DNA of 64,000 nt from Dehalococcoidia bacterium (GCA_965242555.1 CBDESO010000012.1:330803-394802); one strand, 5' to 3'; positions 1 through 46,061 are shown, numbered from the stretch's first letter. Notes: generated from the sequence alone by a model not told the origin. Made by a program: numbers and translations.

Positions 1-59
1 ATGCGCCAAGCGCCACTTTGGCGCCTGGCGCAGCCATCCCCCGCCGCCCCCGCGCATCA

Positions 60-482
60 TCAGAAGAGCGAGAGCTGAGCGGCTACGGCAATCGCCTTCG
101 CCGCCTGCTTCTTGCGCCACCCCTCATAGAGCGGATGCCGGTTAAGCATATCTGCCGTATTTTCGCTAGGCGTCCCCGCGTACAAGTGGTCGGGATTGAC
201 GCAAGGCGGGTTATCGCAGGTGTGGCAGATTATCCTATCCCCAGGATCCTCGCCGTTGGCAATCGCCCACGAAACACGGGTTGCTACATAGTGTTGCGAA
301 CCCTTTTCGTATATCCGCTTGTACCGGCGCGTGTAGAACAAGCCGTAGCCGCGCGGCAACCGCTTATCAGTCCATACCAGACAGCCATCGGCATTGGGAA
401 CTGTGCGCTCGGTTATGTAGCCACGCCAAAAGGCTGCGTCGATTGTGTACATCGCAACCGGCAACGAATTTATCTTTATCAT
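60..482 (-). CDS. HNH endonuclease (phage-associated HNH_3 type)
   Basis: ORF 60..542; the likely start is ATG at 482 (MIKINSLPV). The motif [18 protein letters not shown] is the classic phage HNH nuclease signature. Confidence 0.8.
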
Positions 483-913
483 CTCTGCCTCCTTGCCGTG
501 ATATTCCCTATTTAGATGGTAAAGTGTTCGCAACAAAATCACTCGCCGCCAACCTGCCCGGCCACATCTCTACCTGCGGGTTAAGCGGTCAACAAAGAAA
601 TCCCCCACCGCCAACCCGCCCGCAAACATCATTGGGCGGTCAAATCAGCGCAACAAAAGCAGCCCCGACCGCCAAACCCCTACTTCCCGCACCTCCCACA
701 CCGCCCACCCCCATCCCCCACCAAATCCCGCAGCGCCACAATCTGCACATGCGTCTCCCCGTGATGCCGCGCCCGCAATATCAGATGCTCCGCCTTCACC
801 TCCGCCATCTTCAACCCGTCATGCTCGCAGCGTATCGCCCGCGTCCTATCATCTCGCATCTCTATGCCACTCCCCTCTTGTATTCGCGTATCTTATATTG
901 GCGTATTCGCGCC

Positions 914-1049
914 TTTGCAAAGCGATTGCGCCCGCCCTGTTCGCAAAGCGCCGCGCCCGCCCTGTTCGCAAAGCGCCGCGCCCGCCCCGTATGCAAAGCG
1001 CCGCGCCCGCCCTGTTTGCAAAGCGCCGCGCCCGTCTTGCCCGCAAAGA
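914..1049. repeat. Tandem repeat, about 25-26 bp x 5 (core gcaaagcgccgcgcccgccctgt)
   Basis: The core gcaaagcg recurs at 917, 943, 968, 993 and 1018, with a partial copy at 1043 (period 26, 25, 25, 25, 25). It is intergenic, between the portal stop (1129) and the HNH start. Confidence 0.85.
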
Positions 1050-1128
1050 GCGAGGCAAGGCAAGCGCATCCGCATCAATGTTGAAATAGACAATCGCCTA
1101 TTTCAACTCGCCGGCCGTAAGCCTCTTG

Positions 1129-2388
1129 CTACCCCCCAACCGGCGGCAAATTCATCTCCCGCCGAACTTCATCCACGCTCATTATCCCCGCCTCCACATA
1201 CATCCGCCGCCGCTTCGCCTTATTCTCTTCGCTCTCTTTCAGCGCCTCAACGCCGCTCAAGTCAAACTCCACCGACAGCCCCGGCTCCCTGAAATGCGGA
1301 ACGAGATACTGCGTCAGCGCCTCCTCGTACAGCGCCAATTGCGCCGCTATCGTGTCCTCCCAGAACAGCCGCCGCGCCGTGTTGAAGTTGGAAAAGGTCG
1401 TATGCTCAAAATCCCCTATCATCACCTTAGGCACCCCGAACACCCGCGCGATGTCCTCCAGACTCCAGCGCAGGCTTTGGATATACTCCATATCGCGCGG
1501 GCTGAAACCCAAATTGGACGCGCGCATCCCCGCGCCCAGCAGCGCCGGCCGCCGCGCCTTCTCGACGCCCTGATACCGGCTCTCCCACCGCCGGTAGAAA
1601 TCCCCCACCTCGGCGTCGGTCGGATTGCTGGTCGTCTCTATGATAAGTCCCGGCGCGCTGTCGTTCTGCAGCAGCTTTCGGTTCGCCCGCAAGGCGTCCA
1701 AGCCCATATCCGCCGACAACCGCAGCGGCGCTATCGGCGACAGCCCCGCGTAGTCGTCAAGCGGATTGAAATACCGCATCCAAACGATGTCCTCCGGGAT
1801 GTACGGCGCGAGCCGCCCGCGCTCGCCCACATGCACGAACCCGCGCACATACCGCTCGTCATCCGGCACGATGCGAACCCTATCCGGCCGCAGCGGCCAT
1901 ATCTCGGCAACGCCGCCGTCCTCGCCGCGCTCCAGCGCCCAGAACGCCGCGCCCCACAGCGCCAGATGCGTCTCGGTCGCCCGCCACAAATCCCCCCGCG
2001 TCCAAAACGGATTCGGCGCATCCAGCAGCCGCTGCAGCGGGTGATCCGCGCCCGCCGGCTCGCCGCCCGCACGCAGCCGCGCCGCATCCCCGCTCCGCCG
2101 CAACACCCGCAGCGGCAGCCGCGAGACAGCGTCCTGACGCGCCTTTATCGCCGCATATACCATCGCCGAGCGCGGGTAATACTCCCCATACTCCACCGGC
2201 GTCCACTGCCCGGCGCCGCCCAGCGCCCGCTCAAACCCAAGCCCCGGCGCAGCGCCCGACGCCATCCCCTGCGCCGCCATCCCGCCGCCAACGCCGCTTG
2301 CCCGCATATCGCGCCCTGCGCCCCCGTTCCCAATCCCCAACGGCAGCAGCCGCGCCAGCCCGCCAATCCTATCCTTGATATTCACCAT
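1129..2388 (-). CDS. Phage portal protein (HK97 family)
   Basis: ORF 1129..2469; the likely start is ATG at 2388 (MVNIKDRIGG), preceded by GGGAGGA. The region ..SNLGFSPRDMEYIQSLRWSLEDIARVFGVPKVMIGD.. is typical of HK97-type portals. Confidence 0.85.
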   Translation of the reverse strand: MVNIKDRIGGLARLLPLGIGNGGAGRDMRASGVGGGMAAQGMASGAAPGLGFERALGGAGQWTPVEYGEYYPRSAMVYAAIKARQDAVSRLPLRVLRRSGDAARLRAGGEPAGADHPLQRLLDAPNPFWTRGDLWRATETHLALWGAAFWALERGEDGGVAEIWPLRPDRVRIVPDDERYVRGFVHVGERGRLAPYIPEDIVWMRYFNPLDDYAGLSPIAPLRLSADMGLDALRANRKLLQNDSAPGLIIETTSNPTDAEVGDFYRRWESRYQGVEKARRPALLGAGMRASNLGFSPRDMEYIQSLRWSLEDIARVFGVPKVMIGDFEHTTFSNFNTARRLFWEDTIAAQLALYEEALTQYLVPHFREPGLSVEFDLSGVEALKESEENKAKRRRMYVEAGIMSVDEVRREMNLPPVGG

Positions 2389-2602
2389 CGTCCTCCCGTC
2401 CCGTCTTAGTTCGTAGCAATCAATCCGAAGTTCGCTCAATCCCGTTTCGTTGCGCTTAGTTCGTAGCAATCATCCCAAAGTTCGCTTTGTTCATTCGCGT
2501 ATCTTTGTGCCGCCGCCGCGCACAGGCGTTATATGAACGGCTTACGCGGCGAGGCGTCCGGTAGCGTCCATACTTTCCCCCAAGCCTTACGCCGCCATCC
2601 GA

Positions 2603-4024
2603 CTACACCCACACCTTGAGCCCCGACCCATCCCCCATCCGCGGCGGCGCCACCACCGCGAATGTCATCGCCAGCGCATCCGCCGCGTCCGGCGAATTCC
2701 CCCGCCCGGCGCTCTTCTTGTTCAGCCGCACCCGCCCCTTGCCGTCTATGTGATACTCGCGGCTAGACACCTGCCCAATCAGCTCGTCATCGTTGTCAGT
2801 GCTGATGCTGCCCTCCATATACCGCTCGCGCATATGCCACCACACCTCCGCGTTGCGATTGTAGAAATGCGCCTTGTCTTTGGCGTCCATCCCGCCATTG
2901 AACGGCACAATCCGCGTATCCCCCAAATCAAACTCCCGCAGCTTATCCACCACGCCCGCGCCCACGCCCACATCATCCACCACCAGCGCGTCCACGCGAT
3001 TGCGCTCGCAGTGCATCCGCAGAAAATTCGCTGTCTGCGAAGTGTCTATGCCCCGCATGCTGAGCTTGATTTCGGCCTTGCCGCCCTGACGCTTAACCGC
3101 CACCGTCCTATCCGACCCAAACCGCGCCACATCGCACGCCAACACCACCTCGCCCTCGCCCGGCAGATCCCGCCTAGCCGCCTCCGTAGCCGCCCGCAGA
3201 GGCACAACCACCCCGTCCGGATTGTCCGGAAACTCCGCCAGCACAGACGCGATGTACTTCGCGCTATCCTCCCCCCAATCCCGCTTATGCTCCTCAATAT
3301 CCTCCCGCGTTATCACGCCCGGAACCACCTCGCGCCCGGCCGCCACATTCGGCGTATCCGCCGCGCTGATTTTCACCGTCTCATACATATGCCGCTTGCC
3401 GTGATGCGAATCGTAGAACTCGCCCGCCACCGCGAAAGCGTTCCCCGTCAGCAGCAGCAAATTCGGATGCAGCCGCCGCACCGCGTCCATATAATCCGCC
3501 CCAACCCCGTGCGCCTCGGTGATTGCCACCATCAGGTTCGGCGAGTGAAACCCCAGCATGTTGTACGGCGAATTGGACGCGAACCCCAGCGCAAAGGTTT
3601 GCGTATCCAGCTCATACCTTGATGTTCTTGCCATGCGCCCCTCCAGCGGCGTAGCCGACCCCGCGTAAGCCGCCCGCATCTCATTCCAAACAATGCGGTC
3701 AACCTGCCGCGCCGACGGCCCCGTCACGATAACCTTAGCCGGCGAGCGCGTATGCACCCACCACAAAATAGCCCTAGCCGCCGCCCAATCCTTCCCCGAC
3801 CCGTTGCAGCCCACCACCGACACCCGCCGCCTATCGCCCTTCGCGGCCCTTCCCACCGCCTCCAGCATCTCCACCTGCTTCCTATGCGGCTCATCCCCCA
3901 GCGCCCCCCTCACAAACTCCACCGGCGACATCCCCCCAAACCCGCTGCCCTGCTGCTCCACGCCCATATCTCCCACACCTCCCCGCATCATCATCACCCC
4001 TCCGGCGCAAACCCGAGCAAACAA
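2603..4024 (-). CDS. Phage terminase large subunit
   Basis: 473-aa ORF with a Walker-A-like VSVVGCNGSGKDW and a C-terminal nuclease-type motif ACDVARFGSDRTVAV. It sits directly upstream of the portal gene. The start is uncertain because several internal Met codons are candidates. Confidence 0.75.
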   Translation of the reverse strand: MFARVCAGGVMMMRGGVGDMGVEQQGSGFGGMSPVEFVRGALGDEPHRKQVEMLEAVGRAAKGDRRRVSVVGCNGSGKDWAAARAILWWVHTRSPAKVIVTGPSARQVDRIVWNEMRAAYAGSATPLEGRMARTSRYELDTQTFALGFASNSPYNMLGFHSPNLMVAITEAHGVGADYMDAVRRLHPNLLLLTGNAFAVAGEFYDSHHGKRHMYETVKISAADTPNVAAGREVVPGVITREDIEEHKRDWGEDSAKYIASVLAEFPDNPDGVVVPLRAATEAARRDLPGEGEVVLACDVARFGSDRTVAVKRQGGKAEIKLSMRGIDTSQTANFLRMHCERNRVDALVVDDVGVGAGVVDKLREFDLGDTRIVPFNGGMDAKDKAHFYNRNAEVWWHMRERYMEGSISTDNDDELIGQVSSREYHIDGKGRVRLNKKSAGRGNSPDAADALAMTFAVVAPPRMGDGSGLKVWV

Positions 4025-4145
4025 CGCCGCCTGCCCCCACGCCGCAATCCAATATAGTACATATGTACGCTAGGTGTCAACAATAAACCGCCTTGCAAAA
4101 TCCAACCCGCCGCCCTAAACACGCCGCCCGCCGCCAGGTTATCCC

Positions 4146-4175
4146 TTGCAACCTAACGCCCCCTACCTGTAACCT
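4146..4175 (+). promoter_or_regulatory. Promoter-like box A (TTGCAA-18-TAACCT), part of a conserved ~38-bp block
   Basis: The block cccTTGCAAcc..ctacctgTAACCTaa sits 70 bp upstream of the ATG at 4246. Near-identical blocks occur at 5287..5325 and 5857..5892. Confidence 0.4.
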
Positions 4176-4245
4176 AACGCCCGACCCCAGATTTAGCGTC
4201 AGGCTCTAGATGACAAGATGACAAAAGATCTCGCGTGAGAAGACG

Positions 4246-4629
4246 ATGATCAAAGCCAAAATGCCCAAATCGCCAACGACCGCCAAAGCCCTATTGTGCA
4301 TCCTCTTCGGGCTGGCGATAGTCGCGCCGCCCGTTTGGATGATCAACCTTCACTACGACCAAATCGGCGCAAGAGACGAGATAATCAACAATCAGATTAA
4401 AGCGATTGAAAACCTGAAAGACGCAACCCCGGATTGGGAGTCATTCATCCGCTATACGGATGGCATGTACAGCGACGACAGCTACTATCGCATGGCGGGA
4501 GTAAGAGAGCGGCATCGTGACGGAGAGGCGCGCAACCTGATGTTTTCGATGTTCTGGGCGCTGACAGCGGCGGCGGCCGCGGGCTACTATCTAGGGCGAA
4601 TTCAAAGCAATTCGGGCGGCAAGGACTAA
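4246..4629 (+). CDS. Hypothetical membrane protein (N- and C-terminal TM helices)
   Basis: ATG at 4246 with an upstream purine-rich tract. Hydrophobic segments LLCILFGLAIVAPPVWMINL and LMFSMFWALTAAAAAGYYLG. No family recognised. Confidence 0.5.
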   Translation: MIKAKMPKSPTTAKALLCILFGLAIVAPPVWMINLHYDQIGARDEIINNQIKAIENLKDATPDWESFIRYTDGMYSDDSYYRMAGVRERHRDGEARNLMFSMFWALTAAAAAGYYLGRIQSNSGGKD

Positions 4630-4632
4630 CCT

Positions 4633-5229
4633 ATGATTGGATTGCTGCCAACTGTCTTGGCGTTTGTCGTCACTTTCGTCATAGCGGCGCTCTGCCTCGC
4701 TTGGACGCCATTCGCCGCCCTAATATGCGCCCGCATCGCCCGGCGCAGAGGCCTAAGCGCAAAGCGCGCCGCCATCCACGGCGCTATCTACTCCGCCCTG
4801 CTATTCCTGCCTTGGCGCCACCTAATACGCCAAATGCGCGGCGCTCCAATCACCCGCGCAAGCGTCAACGGCGCATACACCTTCGTATATGTGTACGCGG
4901 GGCTAGTGCTGGCTTCCCACATCGCCTTCATATTCACCATCACATACCCATCCTATTCGATCGCCGAATTCGCGGACATAACTGATTTCATTGCCACCTC
5001 AATCGCCGGCGCGCTAGCCTTCATCGCCGGCCTCGCAAGCCTATCCCGCGCCAACAAGCGCCTCGCCGAACTCCAAGAGCGCCATGAATCCCCCAACGCC
5101 ATTGACCTGCCCAACAAATCCTACATAGCCCCATTCGCCTGGGCATGGGCGTCCATGCTAATCAGCTCCGCCACCTGGTATTACAGGTTCATTACCATAC
5201 TCATATGGACGTCGTTCATAGACAGATAA
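4633..5229 (+). CDS. Hypothetical multi-pass membrane protein
   Basis: ATG at 4633 follows AAGGAC, 3 nt after the upstream stop. Four to five hydrophobic helices. Its N-terminal ~75 aa are duplicated at 5444..5716. Confidence 0.55.
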   Translation: MIGLLPTVLAFVVTFVIAALCLAWTPFAALICARIARRRGLSAKRAAIHGAIYSALLFLPWRHLIRQMRGAPITRASVNGAYTFVYVYAGLVLASHIAFIFTITYPSYSIAEFADITDFIATSIAGALAFIAGLASLSRANKRLAELQERHESPNAIDLPNKSYIAPFAWAWASMLISSATWYYRFITILIWTSFIDR

Positions 5230-7246: not shown

Positions 7247-7354
7247 CGATTCCATACTCCCAAAACTAATCTCATTTGTTATCCGCAGCCACAATCTATA
7301 AAATAATTGAACAAGCGCATATAACGCCAATGTAAAACAAAGGACTTACGCAAC

Positions 7355-8176
7355 ATGATACCAACTAAAGAAAATAAACGACTCATCATCCTGCTCAGAA
7401 AACTCCAAGCCAAAGAAAACAATGACGCCAATGCCGTCGCCAAAACAGAATACCAACTCTATGGAAACAAAAAAGGCACCCTACCTAGTTTTAAGCACGA
7501 AGATAGGGATGACATCCAACTTCTAGTCGATAAAGGTATGATTGAACTTGCCACAAAGCCCCCCATCAATCCGATAGCACAAATACTTAACCCCTTCCCA
7601 GGAATAGACGAATACCATATCCTACCCAAAGGGCGAGCGTATCTTGCCCAACAAACACAAGACAAATTCATTTCCGGTTCACACACAAGCGGTATGCTTG
7701 CATGGAGTATATGGCTTGACGAATCCATCAATCTGGTGTACAGGCCCAAAATCCGCATTCTTCCTAATCTCATACACTCTTGGATCCAAACAAATCTGGT
7801 CACTACGACACTCAGTATTGACCCGCCGTCCCACGATGAACCTCTATACAGGATGCGTATTCCCCCATTTAATACTACATATGTAGTAACCCGTCATCAT
7901 TGGCAATTTGATAAGGGTACCAAGACCTGGTGGAAACGTAGAACGCAAACCACAAAGAAATCCCTTATCGGCGCTGAAGAAGTAGAAACTTTTTCAGAAC
8001 TAGATGATGCCATGCGCTACGTCGCATACTATTATCCACTTCTCGGCATTAAACGCCTTAACCGAATGTGGAAATGGGTGCGCTCATTTCTCCGCATTGT
8101 TTGGAAAATCCTTAATTGGTGGATACTCCCCACCATCATATCTTTGTGGGTTTATGACAGATATTTCAGCGGATAA
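7355..8176 (+). CDS. Hypothetical protein, possibly an N-terminal winged-helix domain plus a C-terminal TM anchor (low-GC islet)
   Basis: ATG follows AAAGGA. The C-terminal hydrophobic segment is ILNWWILPTIISLWVY. No recognisable family. Local GC is far below that of the flanks. Confidence 0.5.
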   Translation: MIPTKENKRLIILLRKLQAKENNDANAVAKTEYQLYGNKKGTLPSFKHEDRDDIQLLVDKGMIELATKPPINPIAQILNPFPGIDEYHILPKGRAYLAQQTQDKFISGSHTSGMLAWSIWLDESINLVYRPKIRILPNLIHSWIQTNLVTTTLSIDPPSHDEPLYRMRIPPFNTTYVVTRHHWQFDKGTKTWWKRRTQTTKKSLIGAEEVETFSELDDAMRYVAYYYPLLGIKRLNRMWKWVRSFLRIVWKILNWWILPTIISLWVYDRYFSG

Positions 8177-8361
8177 CAGATGCCAAAGGCGTCAAACTGC
8201 TTTATCAGGGGAATTGGGTGAAAGACATATGACACGCCGCGCACATAGATCGCGTGGGTTCAGGGCGCAAGGTGATGCGAGGGAATTTCAATAACCAAAC
8301 ACCACTAGCAATAATGCCGATTATGCGGTAGTATTGCTTTACATCTGAGCGGAGGACTGGA

Positions 8362-9336
8362 ATGGCAAAGCGCATAAGCATCATCAACTTCAAGGGCGGC
8401 GTCGGCAAGACCACGCTTGCGTTCCATCTCGGCGCGGGACTTGCTGCGTTTCATGACAAGAGGGTGTTGCTGGTAGATATGGATCACCAAAGCAGCCTGT
8501 CCATAGTTTGCCTGAGGGCGGGCAAATGGAATGAACTTGTTAACGGCAAGCAGACTGTTGACGAGATTTTTAGAACCTTCATCAATCCGTCCCACTCAGT
8601 TGGCAATGAGATTATTGTCAAGTCCCCTGTGAACCAACGATTCTGGGGCAGGGATTACAATAGCGATAAGTATCGCTATCTTAGCTACAATAAACTGGAC
8701 ATTGCGCCTGCGAGTCTCAGTCTTGACGATACAGAGATTGAGCTAACCGCATCGCATCAAGGCAATGCGATAAATTCAGAATGGAACAAGCGCACGCTGA
8801 TATGCCGCTGGATCGAAGAATCAGCAATAGATGATGAGTACGACTACATCATCTTTGACTGCCCGCCTGCGACAAAAATCGTCGCTCAAAATGCCATTGC
8901 GGCCAGCCACGGGTACATCATTCCAGTTGTGCCTGAGGCAGTGATGGAACGGGGCGCGCCGCATCTCCACCACATGATGGAGTCAGGCATTGATACTCGG
9001 TTAAAGGCTCTCGCCGCGATGGGAGAGCCCCGCCCAATACATGTGCCTGACACCAAACTTGTCGGGTTAGCCATAACTCGCATCCAAGTCGCTGCTTGGG
9101 GTTACACAACTGACCATGATGAGCATCTTGGGTCACTACAGCGTCGTTGGGGAACTGAACTACTAAGGCCTTACATAGAGCAGGGCACTGGTGTGTCTTC
9201 AGCTTTGTCGGTAGGCCGTCCGGTTTATAGCCGTGAAGGGATACGTAGCTGGGGGCAAAACATAGAGGCGCGCGGGATCAATACTCAGTTCATAGAGCTA
9301 ACAAACGAAATCAAGCGAAGGGTTGATGCCTTATGA
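8362..9336 (+). CDS. ParA/MinD-family (deviant Walker A) ATPase
   Basis: IINFKGGVGKTTLAFHLG (KGGxxK[ST]), DMDHQSSLS and IIFDCPPA Walker B. RBS GGAGGA. At 324 aa it is longer than canonical Soj, with an internal insertion. Confidence 0.8.
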   Translation: MAKRISIINFKGGVGKTTLAFHLGAGLAAFHDKRVLLVDMDHQSSLSIVCLRAGKWNELVNGKQTVDEIFRTFINPSHSVGNEIIVKSPVNQRFWGRDYNSDKYRYLSYNKLDIAPASLSLDDTEIELTASHQGNAINSEWNKRTLICRWIEESAIDDEYDYIIFDCPPATKIVAQNAIAASHGYIIPVVPEAVMERGAPHLHHMMESGIDTRLKALAAMGEPRPIHVPDTKLVGLAITRIQVAAWGYTTDHDEHLGSLQRRWGTELLRPYIEQGTGVSSALSVGRPVYSREGIRSWGQNIEARGINTQFIELTNEIKRRVDAL

Positions 9337-9845
9337 GAGATGGTCAACTCAAACTGAGCGGAAATCCGAAAACCGACGCCCACGAAGACCGGATACTTGT
9401 CCGCGATGTTGTCCGCCACTTGTCTGGTATGGCGCGACTTCATGCAGATGAGAAAGTTGGCAATCCCGTCCTAAGCGAAGGCTTGCGCCAAATCGCCAAC
9501 GCTTTGCGCCCTTACGCCACCTGCCCGGCGGATGAGTTGGACAGCGTTCTCAGGGGAATAAGGACTGCCCAAAAGCGACCGCCTAAAAAAATAAAGGCGA
9601 CGCTCCCGCCAAACTTGGAATCCATTGACGCGGACGGCATTGAGAAAGTGCTTTCCGACGAAAACTACACAAAATCCCAAATCGCCGAATTGGGATACAA
9701 ACGATTTGGCATATCCCAATCAACGCTCGCCAGGATCAGCAAAGAAGACGCGCTGATTTCCATACGCGCCGCGCTAGAGAATGAACGGGCCCTTGATGTG
9801 ATTTCACAAGTGGCGCGCGCAAGTGGCAAAGCGCGGGCGTCCTAA
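9333..9845 (+). CDS. Hypothetical 170-aa protein translationally coupled to the ParA-like ATPase
   Basis: ATGA start/stop overlap at 9333..9336. Basic tract KRPPKKIK and a possible C-terminal helix-turn-helix (SQIAELGYKRFGISQSTLARI). No family recognised. Confidence 0.5.
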   Translation: MRDGQLKLSGNPKTDAHEDRILVRDVVRHLSGMARLHADEKVGNPVLSEGLRQIANALRPYATCPADELDSVLRGIRTAQKRPPKKIKATLPPNLESIDADGIEKVLSDENYTKSQIAELGYKRFGISQSTLARISKEDALISIRAALENERALDVISQVARASGKARAS

Positions 9846-9985
9846 AAAAGCCCTCAAGCGCCGCCCGCCTCAAAGCCGACCTGATAAAGAACACGGGCGC
9901 CTGAGCGCGAGCGCAATGTGAACAAGCCAAACCTAGCCGCCCCCTAATCCAAGCCGCGCGCCCCCTTTGCGACACAGCCCCCTAC

Positions 9986-10511: not shown

Positions 10512-10588
10512 TGGTGGAGCTGAGGGGACTCGAACCCCTGACTTCTTCCTTGCAAAGGAAGCGCTCTCCCGTGCTGAGCTACAGCCCC
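10512..10588 (-). tRNA. tRNA-Ala (anticodon UGC), CCA encoded
   Basis: The reverse complement reads GGGGCTGTAGCTCAGCACGGGAGAGCGCTTCCTTTGCAAGGAAGAAGTCAGGGGTTCGAGTCCCCTCAGCTCCACCA. It folds as a cloverleaf with the G3:U70 identity pair and anticodon loop TTTGCAA. Confidence 0.93.
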
Positions 10589-10636
10589 GCGCAGACATCC
10601 CGCCGCGCCAAGCGCGCGTCGCGCCGGGCGCAAAGA

Positions 10637-10662
10637 CACCTTAACCGCTGGATAGTGGAAGG
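10637..10662 (-). other. 3' half of the long-range helix enclosing the 16S (putative RNase III processing stem)
   Basis: caccttaaccgctggatagtggaagg is complementary at 24 of 26 positions to 12359..12384. Confidence 0.6.
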
Positions 10663-10848
10663 AAAAGTTTAGACTTAAATAACGACAGGTTTTCTCAGGG
10701 AGGCGCATTCGGGCTTCTGAGGAGCTCCCTCCGGCTTGCGCCGAAGTCCGGCTCTACTCGTCCGCCTTAGTCGCCCCGCCTGTCGAACGACCTGGGATTA
10801 GCCCTTGCGACATCGGCGCATGCGCGCGTCCGCCGCTTGGCTTCTCCC

Positions 10849-12347
<1,499 letters not shown>

Positions 12348-12358
12348 CGTGTGTATTT

Positions 12359-31745: not shown

Positions 31746-31846
31746 TCCCCGAACCTATGATATGCTAACACCCACAACCCGAAACCCTGCCCCAATACGA
31801 TTGCCGCTTGACACATATGATACAATGGCGAAGAGGTGATTAAACC

Positions 31847-32161
31847 ATGGCAACTGATATGCAAGAAGATACGCCAGGACGCGTAGAGACATCTGCCACT
31901 ACCCATGGAGGAACAGATATAGATGGACTTATGCAGATTTTGTTCCAACAGCAGTTGGAGCAAGGTCGCCAGGCAAGAGAAGATTGGCGCGCTATAAGAG
32001 AAAATTGGTGCGCTATAAGAGAAGAGCGGCGCACTATGAACGCGCAAATGGATCAACTTATTAAACGGCTTGATAGGCTTTTCTACCTAGTGGTAGGATT
32101 CGGCAGCGCCTCGCTAGCAGGCTTGATTGCCATTCTCATCAAGCTCTTCCTTGATGGCTAA
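31847..32161 (+). CDS. Small coiled-coil protein with a C-terminal TM anchor (hypothetical)
   Basis: ATG follows AGAGGTGA. The region is locally low in GC. There is an internal 21-bp tandem repeat at 31983..32024 (EDWRAIRENWCAIRE), and the C-terminus is FYLVVGFGSASLAGLIAILIKLF. Confidence 0.45.
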   Translation: MATDMQEDTPGRVETSATTHGGTDIDGLMQILFQQQLEQGRQAREDWRAIRENWCAIREERRTMNAQMDQLIKRLDRLFYLVVGFGSASLAGLIAILIKLFLDG

Positions 32162-32499
32162 CGGCCTGGCTAGGATTGCGGCATGACTGAGATCATTGAG
32201 ATTAAGGCAAATCGCCCCCAAAACCCACCCCAACATTTCCCTACCTCACCCGCATATGCTATAATCACTCTTGCGCCCCAAGCGCATCTCCCTGCCATCG
32301 CACCCGGACCCAACCCCGTCTAAGCTCAGCCCAGCGCTTCAGCCCTCCGGCGAGGACGTACCTTGGACGCTCAAACATCTCCCATCCACCGCCCGCAATA
32401 GCGCATCGCAATAGCGCCCCTCGCGCCCGCTTGCGCCGCCAATCCCCAATTCCCAACCCATCAAACCCTACCTAAACGCCTGCGCGCATGGAGCGTACA

Positions 32500-33785: not shown

Positions 33786-36626
33786 TCACCGCCCCACAGC
33801 GAACTCCACCCCCCACACCCTACCCTCCCCGCCAACAAACTGCCCCGTCCGGACGCGCTCCACCCCATACCCCGGCAACCCACGCTCAACCACGCATATA
33901 TCGCCTATGCGCGCCCCGTATTCAGCGAATTCAAAGTCCATATTGACAAACCCGCGCCCGCGCCAGGCCGCCGGCAAGTCGGCGAGATCACTGGGAATTA
34001 TATGCAGAAAGAACCGCGCGTCCACATCGCCCGCCGCGCAGTTTTCCTTGAGATACGCCAAGCTATCCCCGCGCAGATACACATCGAAGTCAGACTTAGC
34101 GACGGGTTGCCCGTAGTCGCCGGCTGTGATACCGGCATACACCGCTTGCGCCGCGACGTGGGCGGCCGGGTCAAATTCAGCGCTCCACACGACGCCCTCC
34201 CCACCAACAAACTGCCCCGTATGGACGCGCTCTATCCCATAACCCGGCAACTCGCGCGCCGCCACGCAATCATCGCCCACATACGCGCCGTATTCGGCAA
34301 ACCCAAAATCCAAGTTCTCAAACCCGCGCTCGCGCCAGACCGCCGGCAGATCGACAGGATCAACGGGAACTATGTGCAAAAAGAACCGCGCGTCCACATC
34401 CCCCGCCTCGCAGTCCTCTTTCAGATACGCCAGCGCGCCGCCGCGCATATACACATCAAAGCCCGACCGCGCCACCGGCTGCCCGTACTCCCCTGCCGCG
34501 ATGCTATCGTACACCGCTTGCGCCGCCGCGCGGGCCGCCAAGTCAATGTCCGCGCTCCACCCATCGCCGCCAAGCTCCGCCGCGCTCTGTCCAGTGCGGA
34601 TGCGACCTATGGCATATTCTAGCAAGGGCTGTCTGTGGATGCACTTGCCCTCAAAAAAGACGTCGGTATGCGCGTCCAACCGGAAGTCCAAATTCTCAAA
34701 GCCATGCTCCCGCCTGTCCGACGGCAAGTTGGCGGGATCTACGGGGACGATGTGCAGGAAGAATCGCATCCTAGATCCGTTTGACGATAGCGGCGCGCAG
34801 TCCTCGCCGAGATAGTAGAGCGCGTCGTCATAAAGGTAGACATCGAATGCCGAGCGCGTCAGAAGAGTTCCATTCGCCTCGATATCTTCGTATGCCGCGC
34901 GGTAGGCGGCCGCCTTATTTGGCGCAATGATGTACGCGATGGCGTTGCCATAGGCGTTGATGGCGTAAATAGGCGGCTGCTCCAGCATGCTCAAGACGTT
35001 TATGCGCGGGTGAAAATAAAACTCGGATCCTCCGATACTTTTCCTGATCTGCTTGTTATGCCTGGCTTCGACAAACAGATAAAAATCCGCCATGTGCGGG
35101 CTGGTCAAACTTATGATGCGTTCCCGATCCTCCAAGGGAAGGATTGGCTCGCTTCGCCATACTCGCAACACGCGCAGAGTGTCATCCGGGTAGCGCGCCA
35201 GCAGATATTCCAGCAGTTGCCGGTGCGTCATCACCCAGTAGTCCATATCGTACCGCTCGCCAAGCGCGCCGGGCGTCTTGGTATCCACAAGCCCATTGAA
35301 ATACACCTGCTGGTTCGGATGCAGCGCCGCCATAGCCGTCAGCGTGGTTATCAGCCCAACGCCCGCCGCGCCGTATGCCAACCCCCGCCGCGCCATATGC
35401 AAGCGCCCGCAACCGCGAATCCGGCCGGGCAGCCGATCTCCAACTTTCCAAATACCCCCCCCCATACGAATGTTCGTAATTGTATGCAAGCCAACCGCCG
35501 CAAGCAAGCAAAACGGCGCCCACAAGAAATACATATGCCGCCAGCCGTTGTGAATGTTGGATTGCAGCGCGATGAGCGCCACGACAGGCAGCGCAAAGCA
35601 GCCTAGCAGCATTATCCGAAAGCGGGTTTCGCGGTCGCGGAGGGCGTGTAGAGGGCGCGTGATTGTCTGCCAACTGACTGCAGCCGCGCCTAACGCGCCC
35701 AGCGCCAGCGCCATCGGCGGCGCGGTTATCGCAAACCACGCCGGTATGTAATTCCACGGCGCGGCGTCAGATCTGTATAGCTCGCCCATAAACAAATTAT
35801 CTACAATGTAGGGATGCTGGGACAGTACGCGGATGCCCTCAACGAACCGCAGCGGGTTTTCCCAATAGTACGGGTGAATGATGTACAGCGTCGCCGCCGC
35901 CGCCGCCGTGAATATCCCCGCCGACGCTAATATACGCTTGCGCTTCCCCCCGGCCGCCTGCCAAAGATCTATCCCGCGCATACCGAGTATCATCGGCAAC
36001 AGCATCAGTCCGAAAGGGCGCAGATCTATCGCCAAGCCAACCCCTACGCCGCATATCAAAAACGCGCCGAGCGTATCCCTGCGAAACGCGCGGTGAGCAA
36101 GATACAGCGCGATGACCATCAGCGCCGCGAAAGGAATGTCCTTGCTGTTAAAAAACGAATGCGCGTACAAGCGCGGATGCAGCAGAAACATCAACATAGC
36201 CAACAACGCCACCCACCTGTTGCCCAGCATCCGATAGGCGAGCATCCCGCAAGCAAAGCCGCCCGCTATAAAGAACAGGTGGGTAAGCAGGTGGCGCGTC
36301 AGGTAGATATGGCGGCTGTCTTGCAGTCCGAGCGCGCGCTCAGCCAACAGCAGCGGCATCTCAATCACTAGGCCGTAGTAGCTGATATCGAAGCGGGCCG
36401 GCTTTGAGTCGGCGCCCACGTCGTACTCATACAATCCCAGGATGTAGTCGGCGTTGGCGCGGGCGATCCCCCGCTGCTTAGCCTCGTCCACGCCTAGCCC
36501 GTAATCGTCCACCACGCCCACGCCCAAAACCGCAAACACCGCGCACGCCACAGCCGCCCACGCCCAAAACGGCGCGCGCCGCAACGCGGCTAGGCGGAAT
36601 AGCGTGAATTGGGATAGCATAGGCAT
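33786..36626 (-). CDS. GT39/ArnT-PMT-like membrane glycosyltransferase with three C-terminal ~125-aa repeat modules
   Basis: About 12 TM helices, a DE-containing first loop (VDDYGLGVDEAKQ) and a PMT_2-like core. The C-terminus carries 3x FDVY(L/M)..LAYLKE.C..DVDARFFLHI.P.D..DLP..WR.RGFEN.DF.. modules. The start is probably ATG at 36626 or 36620 rather than TTG at 36680. Confidence 0.65.
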   Translation of the reverse strand: MPMLSQFTLFRLAALRRAPFWAWAAVACAVFAVLGVGVVDDYGLGVDEAKQRGIARANADYILGLYEYDVGADSKPARFDISYYGLVIEMPLLLAERALGLQDSRHIYLTRHLLTHLFFIAGGFACGMLAYRMLGNRWVALLAMLMFLLHPRLYAHSFFNSKDIPFAALMVIALYLAHRAFRRDTLGAFLICGVGVGLAIDLRPFGLMLLPMILGMRGIDLWQAAGGKRKRILASAGIFTAAAAATLYIIHPYYWENPLRFVEGIRVLSQHPYIVDNLFMGELYRSDAAPWNYIPAWFAITAPPMALALGALGAAAVSWQTITRPLHALRDRETRFRIMLLGCFALPVVALIALQSNIHNGWRHMYFLWAPFCLLAAVGLHTITNIRMGGGIWKVGDRLPGRIRGCGRLHMARRGLAYGAAGVGLITTLTAMAALHPNQQVYFNGLVDTKTPGALGERYDMDYWVMTHRQLLEYLLARYPDDTLRVLRVWRSEPILPLEDRERIISLTSPHMADFYLFVEARHNKQIRKSIGGSEFYFHPRINVLSMLEQPPIYAINAYGNAIAYIIAPNKAAAYRAAYEDIEANGTLLTRSAFDVYLYDDALYYLGEDCAPLSSNGSRMRFFLHIVPVDPANLPSDRREHGFENLDFRLDAHTDVFFEGKCIHRQPLLEYAIGRIRTGQSAAELGGDGWSADIDLAARAAAQAVYDSIAAGEYGQPVARSGFDVYMRGGALAYLKEDCEAGDVDARFFLHIVPVDPVDLPAVWRERGFENLDFGFAEYGAYVGDDCVAARELPGYGIERVHTGQFVGGEGVVWSAEFDPAAHVAAQAVYAGITAGDYGQPVAKSDFDVYLRGDSLAYLKENCAAGDVDARFFLHIIPSDLADLPAAWRGRGFVNMDFEFAEYGARIGDICVVERGLPGYGVERVRTGQFVGGEGRVWGVEFAVGR

Positions 36627-36778
36627 CACGTGGGGAATTATACCAATCTCAGCGCAACGGCGGGCAACGTTCCAATTCAAGCGGCTTAATACGCCTAATC
36701 TCTACAGCCGTTTGGACAGCATTCCCACCCCCACCCTAACCCGCCGGCAACAACCCGCCAACAGCGACAAGCGGCAAC

Positions 36779-38781: not shown

Positions 38782-40443
38782 TCAGCGCGCCACCTCCATC
38801 TCAAGCGTGAAATCCCCACCGCTTTCAGCGCTATAAGTTGACGCCTCTATCGTATATGCCCCCGCCTGCAACACAGCGCTTATCGTAACCGAATCTGCGT
38901 CAGCAACGCCCTTTTCCCGCCTAACCGCGCCCCCCGTTCCCTCCCCCTCCAGCAAGAATACATAAGGCGTCGCATCGGCGGAGGCCAGCGTGATAGTCAC
39001 CTCGGACGCCGCGTACAGCGTGAATGTATAAAACCGCGCATAGTAAATCCGATTATCAGGCGAATTCGCAGTAAGGCAACCAGCCGCCCACCTGCCCCTA
39101 ACGCTGCCGCTACCCCCAAGCCGCTCGATGCAAGCGGTGGATGCCCCCGCCACGCTTGTAGGCGTAGCCGATGGCGTTGCGGTAGGCGTAGGCGTGGGGG
39201 TTGCCGAGCTTGCCCCGGAACCACCCTCAATTTGCGCCACCTTTGTGGCTAGAACCGCAACCTGGTTTTTGAGATCCGCCAGCTCCGCAACCTGCCCTTC
39301 AAGCGCAATCAGCCTGTCCATAACCTCGTCGGATGCCACCAAAGTCGCAGTTGGCGTTAGCGTGGCAACGGGAGTTACGGACGTGCCCGGCACGGATGTA
39401 GCAGTTGGCGTTGCAGTTGCGCCCTGCGTGGATGTAGCGGTGGGCGTTGGCGTTGCAGAAGTTGTCGTGCCGCAAATTGGCAACCCAATCTCTTGTATCT
39501 CCTGAGTGCTCAGAGGAACGCGCAGAGATCGGGGAATACAACCCGTCAGTCGATTGTCGCGAAGACGCAACTTTATAAGACGGGGTAGATTGCCCAACTC
39601 AGCGGGTATCGCGCCAGTCAGTTGATTGCTGTGAAGATGCACTTCCCTGACATTGGCAAGATTGCCCAACTCCACGGGTATCTCACCAGTCAGTTGATTA
39701 CCAGGGAGCCACACTTCCCTGATTTTGGCAAGATTGCCCAACTCAGCGGGTATTGCGCCAGTCAGTCGATTGTTGTCGAGACCCAAATCATAGAGATTGG
39801 CAAGATTGCCTAACTCAGCAGGTATCGCGCCAGTCAGTCGATTGCCGCCAAGATACAACTGCGCGAGATAGGTAAGGTTGCCCAACTCAGCGGGTATTGC
39901 GCCCGTCAATTGATTGTGGAAGAGCCTCAAAGACCATAGATTGGCAAGATTGCCCAACTCAGCGGGTATTGCGCCCGTCAGTTGATTATCGCTGAGATCC
40001 AAATCCGTGATATTGGCAAGGTTGCCCAACTCTGAGGGTATCCTGCCATTCAAGAGATGGTTGCTCAACTCCAACTTTGATACGCGATTCTTTGCTATCG
40101 TTACGCCGCGCCAACCGCTAATACGAACATCCGCTGACCAGTTTAGATAGCCCTCTGTACCTTCAAGCGTGTTCTTTGCAGCGAGTAGCGCGGCGCAGTC
40201 TGATACAAGGCCGACGTTGTTCGCAGGATCATGCACGGCTGTGCCGTTGGAGCATTGGGCGGTGTATTGGGCGGGTATGGTTATGGTGCGCGCGGCGGTG
40301 TTAGAACCACCCGCGTTAAATGCGGTTGCCCCGCCCCCACCACTCATCAGCAGCGATACCGCCACCACCGCCATCACCACAACCAGCGCCAGCCCGATCG
40401 CAATCCTAATTGCCCGCTTAGACACAGATGGCTTAATGTTCAT
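38782..40443 (-). CDS. Membrane-anchored leucine-rich-repeat protein (plant-type 24-residue LRRs) with a coiled coil and a C-terminal PPC-like domain
   Basis: N-terminal anchor IRIAIGLALVVVMAVVAVSLLM and about 9 repeats of LxxNQLTGAIPAELGNLANLxxL. T/P-rich linkers flank a heptad segment. The tail YYARFYTFTL..AGAYTIEASTY..GDFTLEMEV resembles a pre-peptidase C-terminal domain. Confidence 0.8.
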   Translation of the reverse strand: MNIKPSVSKRAIRIAIGLALVVVMAVVAVSLLMSGGGGATAFNAGGSNTAARTITIPAQYTAQCSNGTAVHDPANNVGLVSDCAALLAAKNTLEGTEGYLNWSADVRISGWRGVTIAKNRVSKLELSNHLLNGRIPSELGNLANITDLDLSDNQLTGAIPAELGNLANLWSLRLFHNQLTGAIPAELGNLTYLAQLYLGGNRLTGAIPAELGNLANLYDLGLDNNRLTGAIPAELGNLAKIREVWLPGNQLTGEIPVELGNLANVREVHLHSNQLTGAIPAELGNLPRLIKLRLRDNRLTGCIPRSLRVPLSTQEIQEIGLPICGTTTSATPTPTATSTQGATATPTATSVPGTSVTPVATLTPTATLVASDEVMDRLIALEGQVAELADLKNQVAVLATKVAQIEGGSGASSATPTPTPTATPSATPTSVAGASTACIERLGGSGSVRGRWAAGCLTANSPDNRIYYARFYTFTLYAASEVTITLASADATPYVFLLEGEGTGGAVRREKGVADADSVTISAVLQAGAYTIEASTYSAESGGDFTLEMEVAR

Positions 40444-41904: not shown

Positions 41905-42075
41905 AACTCCCTCCCTTGCTTTCGCTAATGCCTTATTCGCCTGCCGCAAGCATACCGCATCCAACCCCATTGTCAACGCCCCCCAAACGGAAAATCCCCC
42001 AATTTCAAATTCCCTCTTGACACCCGCCCATCTACCCATTATTCTTAATACGAACAAATATACCGACATACCCAC

Positions 42076-42111
42076 CCAAAAGTTTTTTGCTACTTTTTTC
42101 TAAAAAAGTAG
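42076..42111 (+). repeat. AT-rich dyad element, copy 3 (CCAAAAGTTTTTTGCTACTTTTTTCTAAAAAAGTAG)
   Basis: Same family. It ends 35 nt upstream of the ATG at 42146, and read as TTGCTA-16-TAGGGT it could itself be a promoter. Confidence 0.85.
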
Positions 42112-42145
42112 GGTCCCCCGGCGGGGAGGCTTGGAGGCAACAAAC

Positions 42146-43501: not shown

Positions 43502-43528
43502 CTCCGCAAATCCGCGGCGCAAGCCGCC

Positions 43529-43565
43529 CCCAAAAGTTTTTTGCTACCTTTTTCCAAAAAAGTAG
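43529..43565 (+). repeat. AT-rich dyad element, copy 4 (CCAAAAGTTTTTTGCTACCTTTTTCCAAAAAAGTAG)
   Basis: Same family, with one stem mismatch. It begins 28 nt after the stop of the 42146 gene. Confidence 0.85.
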
Positions 43566-43684
43566 AGCGCCCACACCCCCCGTGCGCCCTCTCGCGCCCA
43601 CCGATTGCTGACGCCCACCCCGCGAATATGCTATCGTGAATACAACACGCCGGCCACCAACCGGCAACCCCAGCGAGAGAGCCA

Positions 43685-44767
43685 ATGTTTCGCCAACCAA
43701 AAGACGAACCCCCGCTCGAATACGATCCATACGCCGACCCCTACAACGGCGAACCTAGCGTCGAGCGGAACAACCCGCCCGCCATACCCCTCCCCGGCAT
43801 CGGCGGCAAAACCTACATAACCTACGCCCTCCTCGCCGTCAACGCCGCCGTATGGCTGCTAATGCTGCTCAGCGGCGGCTCCTCCGACCCCGACGTCCTC
43901 CTCCGGTTCGGCGCGATGTTCGGCCCCCTAGTCGCCGCCGGCGACTACTGGCGCTTGTTCACCGCCATATTCCTGCATGTCCACCTGCTCCACCTGCTTA
44001 TGAACTGCCTCGGCTTGTGGATATTCGGCAAGCTCGTAGAAGGCGTGTACGGCGTCAACCGCTTTATCGCCCTCTACCTCATCGCCGGCCTATCCGGCAG
44101 CGCCCTCAGCTACATATTCAACCGAGACGCCATAGCCGCCGGCGCCAGCGGCGCGATATTCGGCGTCCTAGGCGCGCTCGCCGCCTACTTCCTAGCCCAC
44201 CGCGACCTGCTAGGCGACTGGGGCAGGCGCAACTTTATGAGCCTAGCCGTCGTCGCCGTCATCAACCTAGCCATCGGCGCGCTCTGGCCCGGCATAGACA
44301 ACTGGGCGCACCTCGGCGGCCTAATCGGCGGCTTCCTAGCCGGCATCGCCCTAGCCCCCCGCTACCGCTATGAAACCGACCCAACGCCCTTTGGCAATCA
44401 GCGCCGCATCACCGGCAAAGCCCCCCTAGGCGTCCGCTGGCTAACAATCCCCGCCTTCGCCGCCGCCATAGCCGCGATGGTCTGGTTCGGCGGCACCCAA
44501 CTCACCGGCGCCGAGCAAGCCAAACTCCTCGCGATCCAGGCCGAGCGCCTCCACCTAGACGGCGACGCAACCGCCGCCCTAGACCACATCGACCGCGCCC
44601 TAGACCTAGCGCCGCGCAGCCCCGACGCCCACTTCGCCCGCGCCAAAATCTACGCCGCCCTAGGCGCAACCGACCTGGCCATAGAGGACATCGCCCTAGC
44701 CCTCCAATACGGCCTCGCCGGCGAACAAGGCCGAGAGGCTATATCCCTACTGGTCACGCTCCGATGA
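43685..44767 (+). CDS. Rhomboid-family intramembrane serine protease with a C-terminal TPR-like extension
   Basis: Catalytic GASGAIFGVLGA (Ser) and WAHLGGLIGG (His), WRLFTAIFLH, six TM helices, and a soluble helical-repeat tail. Confidence 0.88.
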   Translation: MFRQPKDEPPLEYDPYADPYNGEPSVERNNPPAIPLPGIGGKTYITYALLAVNAAVWLLMLLSGGSSDPDVLLRFGAMFGPLVAAGDYWRLFTAIFLHVHLLHLLMNCLGLWIFGKLVEGVYGVNRFIALYLIAGLSGSALSYIFNRDAIAAGASGAIFGVLGALAAYFLAHRDLLGDWGRRNFMSLAVVAVINLAIGALWPGIDNWAHLGGLIGGFLAGIALAPRYRYETDPTPFGNQRRITGKAPLGVRWLTIPAFAAAIAAMVWFGGTQLTGAEQAKLLAIQAERLHLDGDATAALDHIDRALDLAPRSPDAHFARAKIYAALGATDLAIEDIALALQYGLAGEQGREAISLLVTLR

Positions 44768-44879
44768 CCGCCCATAGCGCCACTACCCCCCAAGTGATAT
44801 GGTATGCGAACACAATGCTGATACGCCGCCCAACCAGATATTCGGATATGAGGACAATCGGATACGAGGTTCAACGCCC

Positions 44880-46061
44880 ATGACCCTGCCGCAGTTCCCC
44901 GCAGAGCGCCGCGAAAAGCGCGAATTCCTGCTCGCCGCCGTAGAATCCGTGCGTGATGTAGTAGCCGCCCACGCCGACGAATCCGAGCGCATCGGAACGC
45001 TCGCGCAGCCCTCCGTTGACGCCATCCGCCAAGCCGGCCTATTCGCCCTAAAGCTCCCCCAAGCGCTAGGCGGCGCCGAGGCCGACCCCGTAACCCAATT
45101 CGAAGTCATAGAGGCGCTATCCTACATTGACGCCTCCGCCGGCTGGTGCCTTATGATTGGCGCAACCGCCGTAGGCCAGCCCGGCGCCTACGCCGGCGAC
45201 GCCGCCATAGCCGAGATGTTCCCCAACGGCTACATCCCGCTCGGCGCTACCTCAACCGCCCCTATGGGCAGCGCCAAGCGCGTGGACGGCGGCTACCTGC
45301 TCACCGGCAGATGGCCCTTCGCCAGCGGCGTCCGCCACGCCGAGTGGATGTCCGCCGGCGCCGCCATACCCGCTCCCAACCCTAACGATCCCCCGATTTC
45401 GCTCGCCCTAGCCTACCCCACCGCCAAAGCGCAAATCCACGACAACTGGCATGTCTTCGGCTTGCAAGGCACCGGCAGCAACGACATATCGGTAGAGAAC
45501 ATATTCGTCCCCGACGCCTTCACCTGGGACTCCCTCGCCTTCAAGCCCAAGCGCGGCGGCGGCCTCTACCGCATGGGCAGGCCCGGCTTCGTAGCAAACG
45601 AACACCCCGCATTCGCCCTCGGCGTAGCCCATCGCGCCCTAGACGAAGTCCTAGCGAGCGCCCCCGCCAAACGCCGAGGCCGCCCGCCCACCTCCGTCGC
45701 CGACCGCGGCGCATTCCGCCTAGCCATAGGCGAATGCGACCTCCGCCTGCGCGCCGCCCGCCTGCTATCCCACCAAATCTTCGAGCGCGCCTACGCCGTC
45801 GCCTGCGCCGGCCGCATCCCCCCCGCATCAATGCAAGCCGAAATGCGCGCCGCATCCGCCTTCGCCACCCAAGTCGGCGTGGACATAGTCACAACCGCCT
45901 TCCGCTACTCCGGCGGCGAGGCGCTCTACCACCCCCACATCCTCCAGCGCTGCCTAAAAAACATCAACGCCGCCGCCCAGCACCTAATGGCCGGCGACAT
46001 CGGCATAGAACACCACGGCGCCGCCCTCCTAACCGACGGCGACGTCAACCCAATGGGCTAG
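44880..46061 (+). CDS. Acyl-CoA dehydrogenase-fold protein (type-2/flavin-dependent oxygenase-like)
   Basis: ATG at 44880 follows GAGG. ..LPQALGGAEADPVTQFEVIEALSYIDASAGWCLMIGA.. and ..WPFASGVRHAEW.. are typical of the ACAD type-2 subfamily. Confidence 0.75.
   Translation: MTLPQFPAERREKREFLLAAVESVRDVVAAHADESERIGTLAQPSVDAIRQAGLFALKLPQALGGAEADPVTQFEVIEALSYIDASAGWCLMIGATAVGQPGAYAGDAAIAEMFPNGYIPLGATSTAPMGSAKRVDGGYLLTGRWPFASGVRHAEWMSAGAAIPAPNPNDPPISLALAYPTAKAQIHDNWHVFGLQGTGSNDISVENIFVPDAFTWDSLAFKPKRGGGLYRMGRPGFVANEHPAFALGVAHRALDEVLASAPAKRRGRPPTSVADRGAFRLAIGECDLRLRAARLLSHQIFERAYAVACAGRIPPASMQAEMRAASAFATQVGVDIVTTAFRYSGGEALYHPHILQRCLKNINAAAQHLMAGDIGIEHHGAALLTDGDVNPMG

Follow-up and report, generated by a model that had tools for sequence, protein, structure and literature searches.

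An extreme strand-following base skew that stops abruptly beside symmetric ancestral DNA in a Dehalococcoidia chromosome

The window analysed here is a stretch of 64,000 nt from the genome of a Dehalococcoidia bacterium (GCA_965242555.1, CBDESO010000012.1:330803-394802). Its genes, as identified with Pfam, PHROGs, Rfam and ARAGORN, represent ordinary chromosomal gene content, and its composition splits in two at 46,060/46,061, with a strongly strand-asymmetric domain on the left and a nearly strand-symmetric block on the right. Besides the features collected in Table 1, the domain carries genes for RNase D, an MBL-like protein, a CoA-transferase, a rhomboid protease and an acyl-CoA dehydrogenase, together with pyrG, rho and ugd, the last of which adjoins a low-GC islet encoding a ParA-like ATPase. 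With modest confidence, we favour the reading that the skew reflects a real, derived and still-operating strand-specific mutation regime, acting on a chromosomal domain and not on the whole genome. Throughout the text, skews are signed on the plus strand, and GC4 and AT4 denote the GC and AT skews at four-fold degenerate sites, read along the plus strand for genes of either orientation.

Table 1. Features of the 64,000-nt window, with coordinates counted from its first letter (ORF, open reading frame).
Feature	Coordinates	Strand	Description
Strand-asymmetric domain	1..46060		Plus strand C/A-rich, minus strand G/T-rich; continues past the left window end
Phage packaging module	60..4024	-	HNH 60-542, portal 1129-2469, large terminase subunit (TerL) 2603-4024
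Small unskewed patch	4200..4630	+	127-aa ORF without family match; 400-nt windows +0.04 and 0.00; GC4 +0.14
Low-GC islet	7250..9850	+	273-aa ORF, ParA-like ATPase 8362-9336, 170-aa ORF
tRNA-Ala and 16S rRNA	10512..12351	-	Rfam SSU_rRNA_bacteria (1515 bits) and tRNA; ARAGORN; on the G/T-rich strand
pyrG-rho intergenic/leader region	31750..32480	+	Locally unskewed, ~48% GC; skew +0.13 at 31801-32200
GT39/PMT-family glycosyltransferase	33786..36680	-	PF02366/PF13231; GC4 -0.24
Leucine-rich-repeat (LRR) gene	38782..40443	-	LRR families; GC4 -0.11; silent-site GC 0.58
Skew step	46000..46400		Convergent junction of an acyl-CoA dehydrogenase gene (+, ends 46061) and the NTase/HEPN pair (-)
NTase and HEPN-type substrate-binding pair	46045..46784	-	Toxin-antitoxin-like; PF08780, PF18765, PF01909
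Strand-symmetric block	46842..64000		Two ABC ATPases, two FtsX-type permeases, three acyl-CoA dehydrogenases, AsnC, pyruvate:ferredoxin oxidoreductase (POR)

Over its whole sequence, the domain has a GC skew of -0.265 and an AT skew of +0.148, against -0.068 and +0.018 for positions 46061-64000, both parts having a GC content of 61.1%. With an expected standard deviation of 0.006 for a 46-kb segment under strand symmetry, the observed value lies about 44 standard deviations away. At the four-fold sites of the domain, plus-strand genes count 2554 C, 392 G, 588 A and 154 T (GC4 -0.73, AT4 +0.59) and minus-strand genes 1592 C, 224 G, 189 A and 86 T (GC4 -0.75, AT4 +0.38), T being as depleted as G. 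Since GC4 is nearly equal in the two orientations, the bias tracks the DNA strand and not transcription. An earlier note on this DNA, made from the sequence alone, had claimed an extreme and orientation-independent asymmetry over about 46 kb; the claim holds on both counts, and the effect is stronger than was stated. The hand counts behind it were exact for the lines starting at 6001, 41001, 35701 and 63001 and off for two others, the line at 33841 being G10/C30 (C31 in the note) and that at 50001 being G15/C22 (G19/C20 in the note). The extreme case is rho, with A37 C198 G1 T2 at four-fold sites (GC4 -0.99), and values nearly as large are reached by an MFS gene on the minus strand (-0.93), an FMN_dh gene (-0.92), pyrG (-0.91) and the minus-strand CoA-transferase gene (-0.86).

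Such values are much larger than is usual for bacterial replication skew, as the earlier note had suspected. In a survey of 352 bacterial chromosomes, the strongest G/C skew due to replication at four-fold sites is 0.43 (Morton and Morton 2007, PMC2099444), and the silent-site skew of the domain is about twice this maximum. At 80 rho loci from other species, the absolute skew of the whole sequence does not exceed 0.19, and it stays below 0.05 in the nearest Dehalococcoidia. Our search of the literature for strand skew in this clade returned nothing specific.

The bias is not restricted to silent sites. Amino-acid usage and the first two codon positions shift along with them: amino acids with G/T codons make up 19.8% of residues in plus-strand genes vs 24.9% in minus-strand genes, and those with C/A codons 26.1% vs 17.7%. 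Gene orientation governs codon positions 1 and 2, which brings the AT skew of the whole sequence to about zero or below at 1-4 kb and 11-16 kb; only at silent sites does this skew follow the strand throughout.

The skew recurs in related genomes, a comparison that the earlier note had proposed. It amounts to -0.276 in OZ251547.1, a 3.50-Mb metagenome-assembled genome (MAG) named 'Dehalococcoidia bacterium' (L001 in our set), to -0.21 in the short-read-type scaffold PANK22 (L081) and to -0.18 in a Logan SRA contig (L082), all three being assemblies other than that of the window. Between lineages it is graded: silent sites of rho reach -0.99 in the window, -0.77 in L081, -0.65 in L083 and -0.58 in L097, and +0.01 in L084, the PyrG proteins of these four relatives being 95%, 86%, 82% and 82% identical to that of the window, respectively. 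An outgroup with the same gene order around the 46-kb junction (L099) has a skew of about zero on both sides of it, and other Dehalococcoidia remain below 0.05 in absolute value. As outgroups lack the skew and relatives are graded, it is a derived trait, and one that arose recently. A circular 2.83-Mb relative (L086) has two strongly skewed loci at a distance of 290 kb, and their signs on the record strand agree, which fits a determinant acting at the scale of a replichore.

The hosts are a young clade of uncultured soil Dehalococcoidia. Window Rho is 100% identical to that of OZ251547.1, with DNA only 93-95% identical, and by such comparisons the window belongs to a swarm whose genomes share about 95% identity. 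One strain of this kind (L085) served for comparison along the window. At least three complete genomes of 3.43-3.51 Mb (L089, L090, L091), about 95% identical mutually and to the window, come from the single sample ERZ26050812, and this co-occurring swarm sits at the conventional species boundary of about 95% identity. Between the window and the 2.83-Mb relative, Rho (83%) and PyrG (82%) look unusually diverged for their class, and acyl-CoA dehydrogenases and ABC ATPases of the symmetric block are 88-93% identical. This suggests that mutation pressure may speed up protein evolution in skewed DNA; with rho and pyrG only about 82-83% identical between relatives that have about 90% identical acyl-CoA dehydrogenases, the effect apparently reaches protein divergence.

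On its right side the domain ends sharply. In sliding windows of 60 four-fold sites, GC4 passes from -0.85 at 45.7-46.0 kb through -0.48 and -0.22 to -0.11 by 46.35-46.7 kb, so that the step is complete within about 300-500 nt, at a place where two convergent ORFs overlap (46045-46061). The same junction is seen in L085 and, among more distant relatives, in L086-L088, that of L086 recurring in Logan contigs built from Illumina reads. The NTase/HEPN pair sits exactly at the step; both genes are present in L085 and absent from L086 and L099, and the pair is an insertion specific to the swarm. An origin of replication at the step was considered and rejected, matches to the DnaA box numbering 9 where 6.6 are expected and being unclustered. 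No inverted repeat or hairpin of note was found at 45-49 kb.

Beyond the step, GC4 lies between 0 and -0.30, and in the sister genomes L091, L092 and L094 the block extends over PFOR-beta, a PALP enzyme and a binding protein as far as gyrB, reaching at least 27 kb. The profile discussed here therefore covers about 73 kb, the 46-kb domain plus this block of at least 27 kb, its second part being extended by means of the sister genomes. Absence from relatives, or a different location in them, which would point to a horizontal island, was not found for the block in L085, L086 and the unskewed L099: all three keep the order acyl-CoA dehydrogenase / ABC-ABC-FtsX-FtsX-three acyl-CoA dehydrogenases-AsnC. 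The block is unskewed in every lineage sampled. Its silent sites have turned over, given the shift of silent-site GC from 0.88 in the window to 0.58 in L086; its proteins in the window and in L086 are equidistant from those of L099; and its silent divergence between the window and L085 (0.099) compares with 0.087 on the skewed side. Synteny, turnover, equidistance and equal strain divergence together indicate that the block is old and vertically inherited. The nearest FtsX1 homologue outside the swarm is 82% identical, leaving no plausible recent donor. In L086 the acyl-CoA dehydrogenases of the block have skews of -0.07 to +0.05, and the magnitude climbs towards the domain (FtsX1 0.25, ABC2 0.49, ABC1 0.63, dehydrogenase 0.53, rhomboid 0.60), placing the step of this relative at roughly the same syntenic position, within about 5 kb.

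Substitutions at four-fold sites differ between the two parts in the same manner. For the domain at 22-39 kb, the window was compared with OZ251547.1 and changes were polarised by L081 as outgroup. G>A occurred at 5 of 132 sites (0.038) vs 9 of 2636 (0.0034) for C>T (p=3e-4), and G>C at 7 of 132 (0.053) vs 8 of 2636 (0.0030) for C>G (p=2e-6); taken together, G is lost by these two routes at 0.091 per site and C at 0.0064 (p=2e-9). Plus-strand G>A and G>C thus exceed their complements 11- to 20-fold in the domain, the rest of the changes being mostly C<>A (C>A 52, A>C 19, G>T 1, T>G 0). The asymmetry was found again at 40.7-43.0 kb in three 95%-identical genomes that allow good polarisation, with G>A at 3 of 63 sites (0.048) and C>T at 2 of 834 (0.0024). 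For the block, singletons among five genomes were used: G>A (0.0074) and C>T (0.0066) are alike, as are the overall losses of G (55/2445, 0.0225) and of C (73/3350, 0.0218), and the 3.8-fold excess of G loss in the domain is rejected for the block (p=6e-13). The asymmetric pressure is not acting in the block. Silent differences between strains (40.6-64 kb, window vs L085, L089, L091 and L092) are unusually rich in transversions, with a transition to transversion ratio of about 1:2, and C<>G and C<>A changes stand out in skewed and unskewed DNA alike.

In the swarm, the minus strand of the domain keeps losing C and, judging from composition, also A. Plus-strand C and A interconvert and otherwise are stable, and silent sites have run almost to C/A fixation on that strand in genes of both orientations. 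Under the favoured reading of a strand-specific mutation regime limited to a domain, the minus-strand changes from C to T or G, joined in the composition by A>G, are those expected from damage to exposed single-stranded DNA, the presumed lesions being deaminated cytosine and adenine and abasic sites whose bypass yields C>G. Exposure would most likely take place during replication, no other process being both common enough and indifferent to how genes are oriented; the minus strand would be the leading-strand sequence, that is, the parental template of the lagging strand. The earlier note had likewise taken the G/T-rich minus strand, which bears the 16S gene, to be of the leading type, and we agree. 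On this assignment, forks would move from high to low window coordinates. The 46-kb step would then have the polarity of the origin side (strongly negative to about zero towards the origin) and not that of a terminus, its amplitude being half of that expected at an origin since the skew goes to zero and not to the opposite sign.

A number of observations weigh against this reading. A pure replication-direction model predicts skew everywhere, with flips only at the origin and terminus; here the skew falls to about zero with no change of sign and stays flat for at least 27 kb, and within about 73 kb no second arm of opposite sign is seen. Relatives are patchy at a scale of 5-10 kb, including opposite signs (+0.42 for the MBL-like gene in L084; +0.36 beside -0.75 in L097). 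Intergenic DNA of the domain has a GC skew of -0.25, far weaker than that of four-fold sites. No preference of genes for the leading strand is seen in the domain, about 56% of coding bases lying on the putative lagging strand by a tally of gene coordinates. In the polarised counts, the asymmetry between loss of T and loss of A is not significant, and a high per-site loss of rare bases is expected at any stationary skew, so the domain counts document the maintenance of the bias and not its cause. Finally, differences between two strains in the GT39 gene, which sits 18 nt from rho, are strand-symmetric over all sites (AG 33 vs CT 25, AC 9 vs GT 12); in this small sample, the alleles may have diverged elsewhere, or the pressure may be patchier than a simple domain.

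Asynchronous, mitochondrion-like replication, or a sparse or delayed priming of the lagging strand, would leave the displaced minus strand single-stranded for long periods. We regard this alternative as unlikely, and find it equally doubtful that asynchronous copying leaves a displaced parental strand unpaired for tens to hundreds of kb in part of the chromosome, in the way of vertebrate mitochondria, rolling-circle replicons or break-induced replication. Exposure would be maximal just downstream of a site of second-strand priming or initiation and about zero just upstream, giving a sawtooth with no flip, and the 46-kb junction would be one such site. Alone among the models considered, it predicts a sharp step from maximum to zero, the polarity observed and a long flat stretch beyond, and the position of the step in L086 is in keeping with it. 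Vertebrate mitochondrial DNA offers a parallel: G and T are jointly depleted on one strand at four-fold sites, near saturation and irrespective of gene strand, and in the strand-displacement model the light-strand origin produces a step without sign change. The near-saturated, joint G/C and T/A asymmetry of the domain resembles this pattern. However, the chromosome is here 200 times larger, and such a mode is unprecedented for one of 3.5 Mb. The recent substitution spectrum is rich in C<>A and G>C transversions, unlike that of mitochondria. The step has strand-displacement polarity, but no cis element was found there (overlapping ORFs, no hairpin, no cluster of DnaA boxes, no origin-like element), no gradient is resolvable in the window and no ramp is visible on either side within 73 kb; the kb-scale patchwork of the relatives would also need extra assumptions.

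About as improbable is a history of rearrangements, in which a strong but ordinary skew is combined with frequent inversions and translocations and segments at zero are flipped pieces passing through zero. Relatives do look like mosaics of two signs, and lineages differ in gene order near pyrG and past the rhomboid gene. Asymmetric substitutions would nevertheless be expected in a segment in transit, and those of the block are symmetric. The swarm, L086 and the unskewed outgroup also agree in the orientation of the block relative to its neighbours, the skew of the block is about zero even in lineages diverged to saturation at silent sites, and skew values cluster near 0 and 0.8-0.99 instead of being evenly spread.

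A shade less probable still is a very strong replication skew of the whole genome, every unskewed stretch being recent DNA not yet ameliorated. The earlier note had proposed this, with the skew as an amelioration clock labelling recent arrivals. The small patches inside the domain speak for it, since they are later insertions or hypervariable genes, the pyrG-rho leader excepted. The GT39 gene is missing in L081, L083, L084 and L097, where rho adjoins the MBL-like gene, and present in OZ251547.1, which makes it an insertion specific to the swarm; its four-fold skew is weak along the full length (-0.02 to -0.48 per 300-nt bin) and not, as had been thought, in the 5' two-thirds only. When the window is compared with L085 or OZ251547.1, the LRR region either fails to align or reaches an identity of about 70%, with flanks 93-95% identical. 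The ParA islet, whose ATPase matches AAA_31/CbiA in Pfam and a ParA-like PHROG, has 44-54% GC vs 61% in its surroundings; it is likely a later insertion judging from composition, no relative spanning the stretch. Described earlier as unskewed throughout, it deserves the name for ParA (GC4 -0.04) and less so for the 170-aa ORF (-0.21), while the 273-aa ORF at 7355-8176 is low in GC yet still skewed (-0.58). The accessory nature attributed earlier to all the unskewed patches thus holds for GT39, LRR and the islet; the patch at 31.8-32.2 kb corresponds instead to the region between pyrG and rho, whose flanks align to L081 and of which 31992-32209 does not, and one at 4.2-4.6 kb had been missed.

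Amelioration of horizontally acquired DNA accordingly fits the lineage-specific and less skewed GT39, LRR, ParA islet and NTase/HEPN genes, and intermediate values exist as well (portal -0.61, RCC1-GSDH genes -0.52). It does not fit the vertically inherited block of at least 27 kb, which is syntenic in L086 and L099, is unskewed in all lineages despite its re-equilibrated silent GC, evolves in a clock-like manner with a strain divergence equal to that of the domain, has symmetric substitutions and lacks a recent donor. As a complete explanation the recent-arrival model is refuted, and the clock fails for the largest unskewed stretch of all.

The last two explanations are very improbable. Codon-usage selection or transcription-associated asymmetry could account for the small residual silent-site skews of the block, which follow the coding strand (gyrB, POR and PFOR-beta have more C than G on it), but is refuted by the orientation independence of the domain, where one plus-strand skew amounts to opposite codon preferences in plus and minus genes and where intergenic DNA is skewed too. 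Moreover, the skew peaks in rho and pyrG and spares an entire contiguous block. An artefact, whether strand-specific errors of nanopore sequencing or a chimeric join at 46 kb, might be feared because the long contigs were assembled from metagenomic long reads at 14-63x coverage, but it is refuted by intact reading frames with the bias concentrated at silent sites, by the same skew in short-read-type scaffolds and Logan contigs, and by the junction being reproduced in independent assemblies of several strains and species.

Four more specific candidates were also set aside. A large inverted duplicate homogenised by gene conversion, comparable to the inverted repeat of chloroplasts, is at odds with AsnC being found at one place per genome, with no collapsed similar places. 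Transcription-coupled repair or co-orientation of the block genes does not apply, plus and minus genes being alike in both regimes. That relatives received their skewed segments from a donor resembling the window is not borne out by L097, whose skewed Rho (83%) and unskewed PyrG (82%) are similarly identical to those of the window. A feedback through depletion of primase sites, weighed by argument on paper, is weak as codon positions 1 and 2 keep enough minus-strand C and A.

Strand asymmetry is a standard computational read-out of bacterial replication, and is assumed to be genome-wide and modest. The skew of the domain shares with bacterial replication skew its strand-following character, the joint enrichment of G and T on one strand, its strength at silent sites, the location of rRNA and tRNA genes on the G/T-rich strand and the excess of C>T on that strand. 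It differs by its size (0.73-0.99 at silent sites vs a maximum of 0.43; PMC2099444), by its limitation to a domain flanked by symmetric ancestral DNA with a step to zero, and by the lack of gene preference for the leading strand. The closest published precedent in whole-sequence magnitude is the order UBA1400 of the Microgenomates (Ch65, Collierbacteria, Beckwithbacteria), with 29.8% C vs 15.0% G, a skew of about -0.33 (Kadnikov et al. 2020, PMC7143001). There, too, genes occupy both strands, and the trait marks a single clade, a sister family being without it (PMC7143001). The disparity of UBA1400 extends along the whole chromosome of about 1 Mb and was ascribed to unidirectional replication, and Ch65, with 27.9% A and 27.3% T, has no A/T disparity (PMC7143001). 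In our case, A/T is also skewed (AT4 +0.38 to +0.59), the genome is that of a Chloroflexota of 3.5 Mb, and the domains are sharp-edged, the unskewed block of at least 27 kb arguing against a strict uniformity of the UBA1400 type.

The kind of phenomenon, mutational strand asymmetry, is therefore known. Its magnitude at silent sites, its joint A/T component, its recent origin within the Chloroflexota and, above all, its sharp coexistence with symmetrically evolving ancestral DNA are new. A recent trait with graded intermediates and unskewed sisters makes the cause testable by comparing complete genomes that already exist, the candidates being a lost repair of deaminated bases, an altered priming of the lagging strand or an unusual replication programme. 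If asynchronous copying were true, the 46-kb step would mark the start of second-strand or displacement synthesis, and the unskewed close lineages would form a natural before-and-after series for a change of replication mode or a loss of repair or priming. Such genomes will mislead skew-based origin finders, detectors of horizontal transfer that rely on codon usage, and phylogenies built from affected genes.

Several other features of the window deserve mention. The phage module matches the Pfam family Phage_portal (1.8e-72) and the portal, large terminase subunit and HNH groups of PHROGs; the prophage probably extends beyond the left edge, and a query with the portal protein found no relative in IMG/VR. 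It is long-resident, as the earlier note held; the accompanying statement that it is fully skewed needs tempering, its GC4 (portal -0.61, TerL -0.67) being large but short of the maximum. Along the 16S and tRNA-Ala stretch, the local skew of -0.06 to -0.26 is damped by RNA function. The 16S gene is followed only by tRNA-Ala, and the 10 kb to its left and right contain neither a 23S nor a 5S gene, which makes the rRNA operon an unlinked one.

Between 15969 and 24273 lie three tandem paralogues of 842, 856 and 738 aa in which RCC1 repeats accompany a glucose/sorbosone dehydrogenase (GSDH) beta-propeller. They are 74-78% identical at the DNA level to a single copy in L081, and their silent-site skew (-0.52 to -0.67) is weaker than that of the neighbouring core genes. 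In the block, the two FtsX-family permeases are very large (1253 and 1215 aa) and adjacent, and form with the two ABC ATPases an arrangement (48655-56187) that the whole family shares, the relatives being 60-80% identical. Between two of the acyl-CoA dehydrogenase genes, at 57400-58300, about 800 nt of AT-rich DNA (48-50% G+C) hold two small ORFs, corresponding to genes of 89 and 93 aa in sister genomes, and the content of this interval varies between strains.

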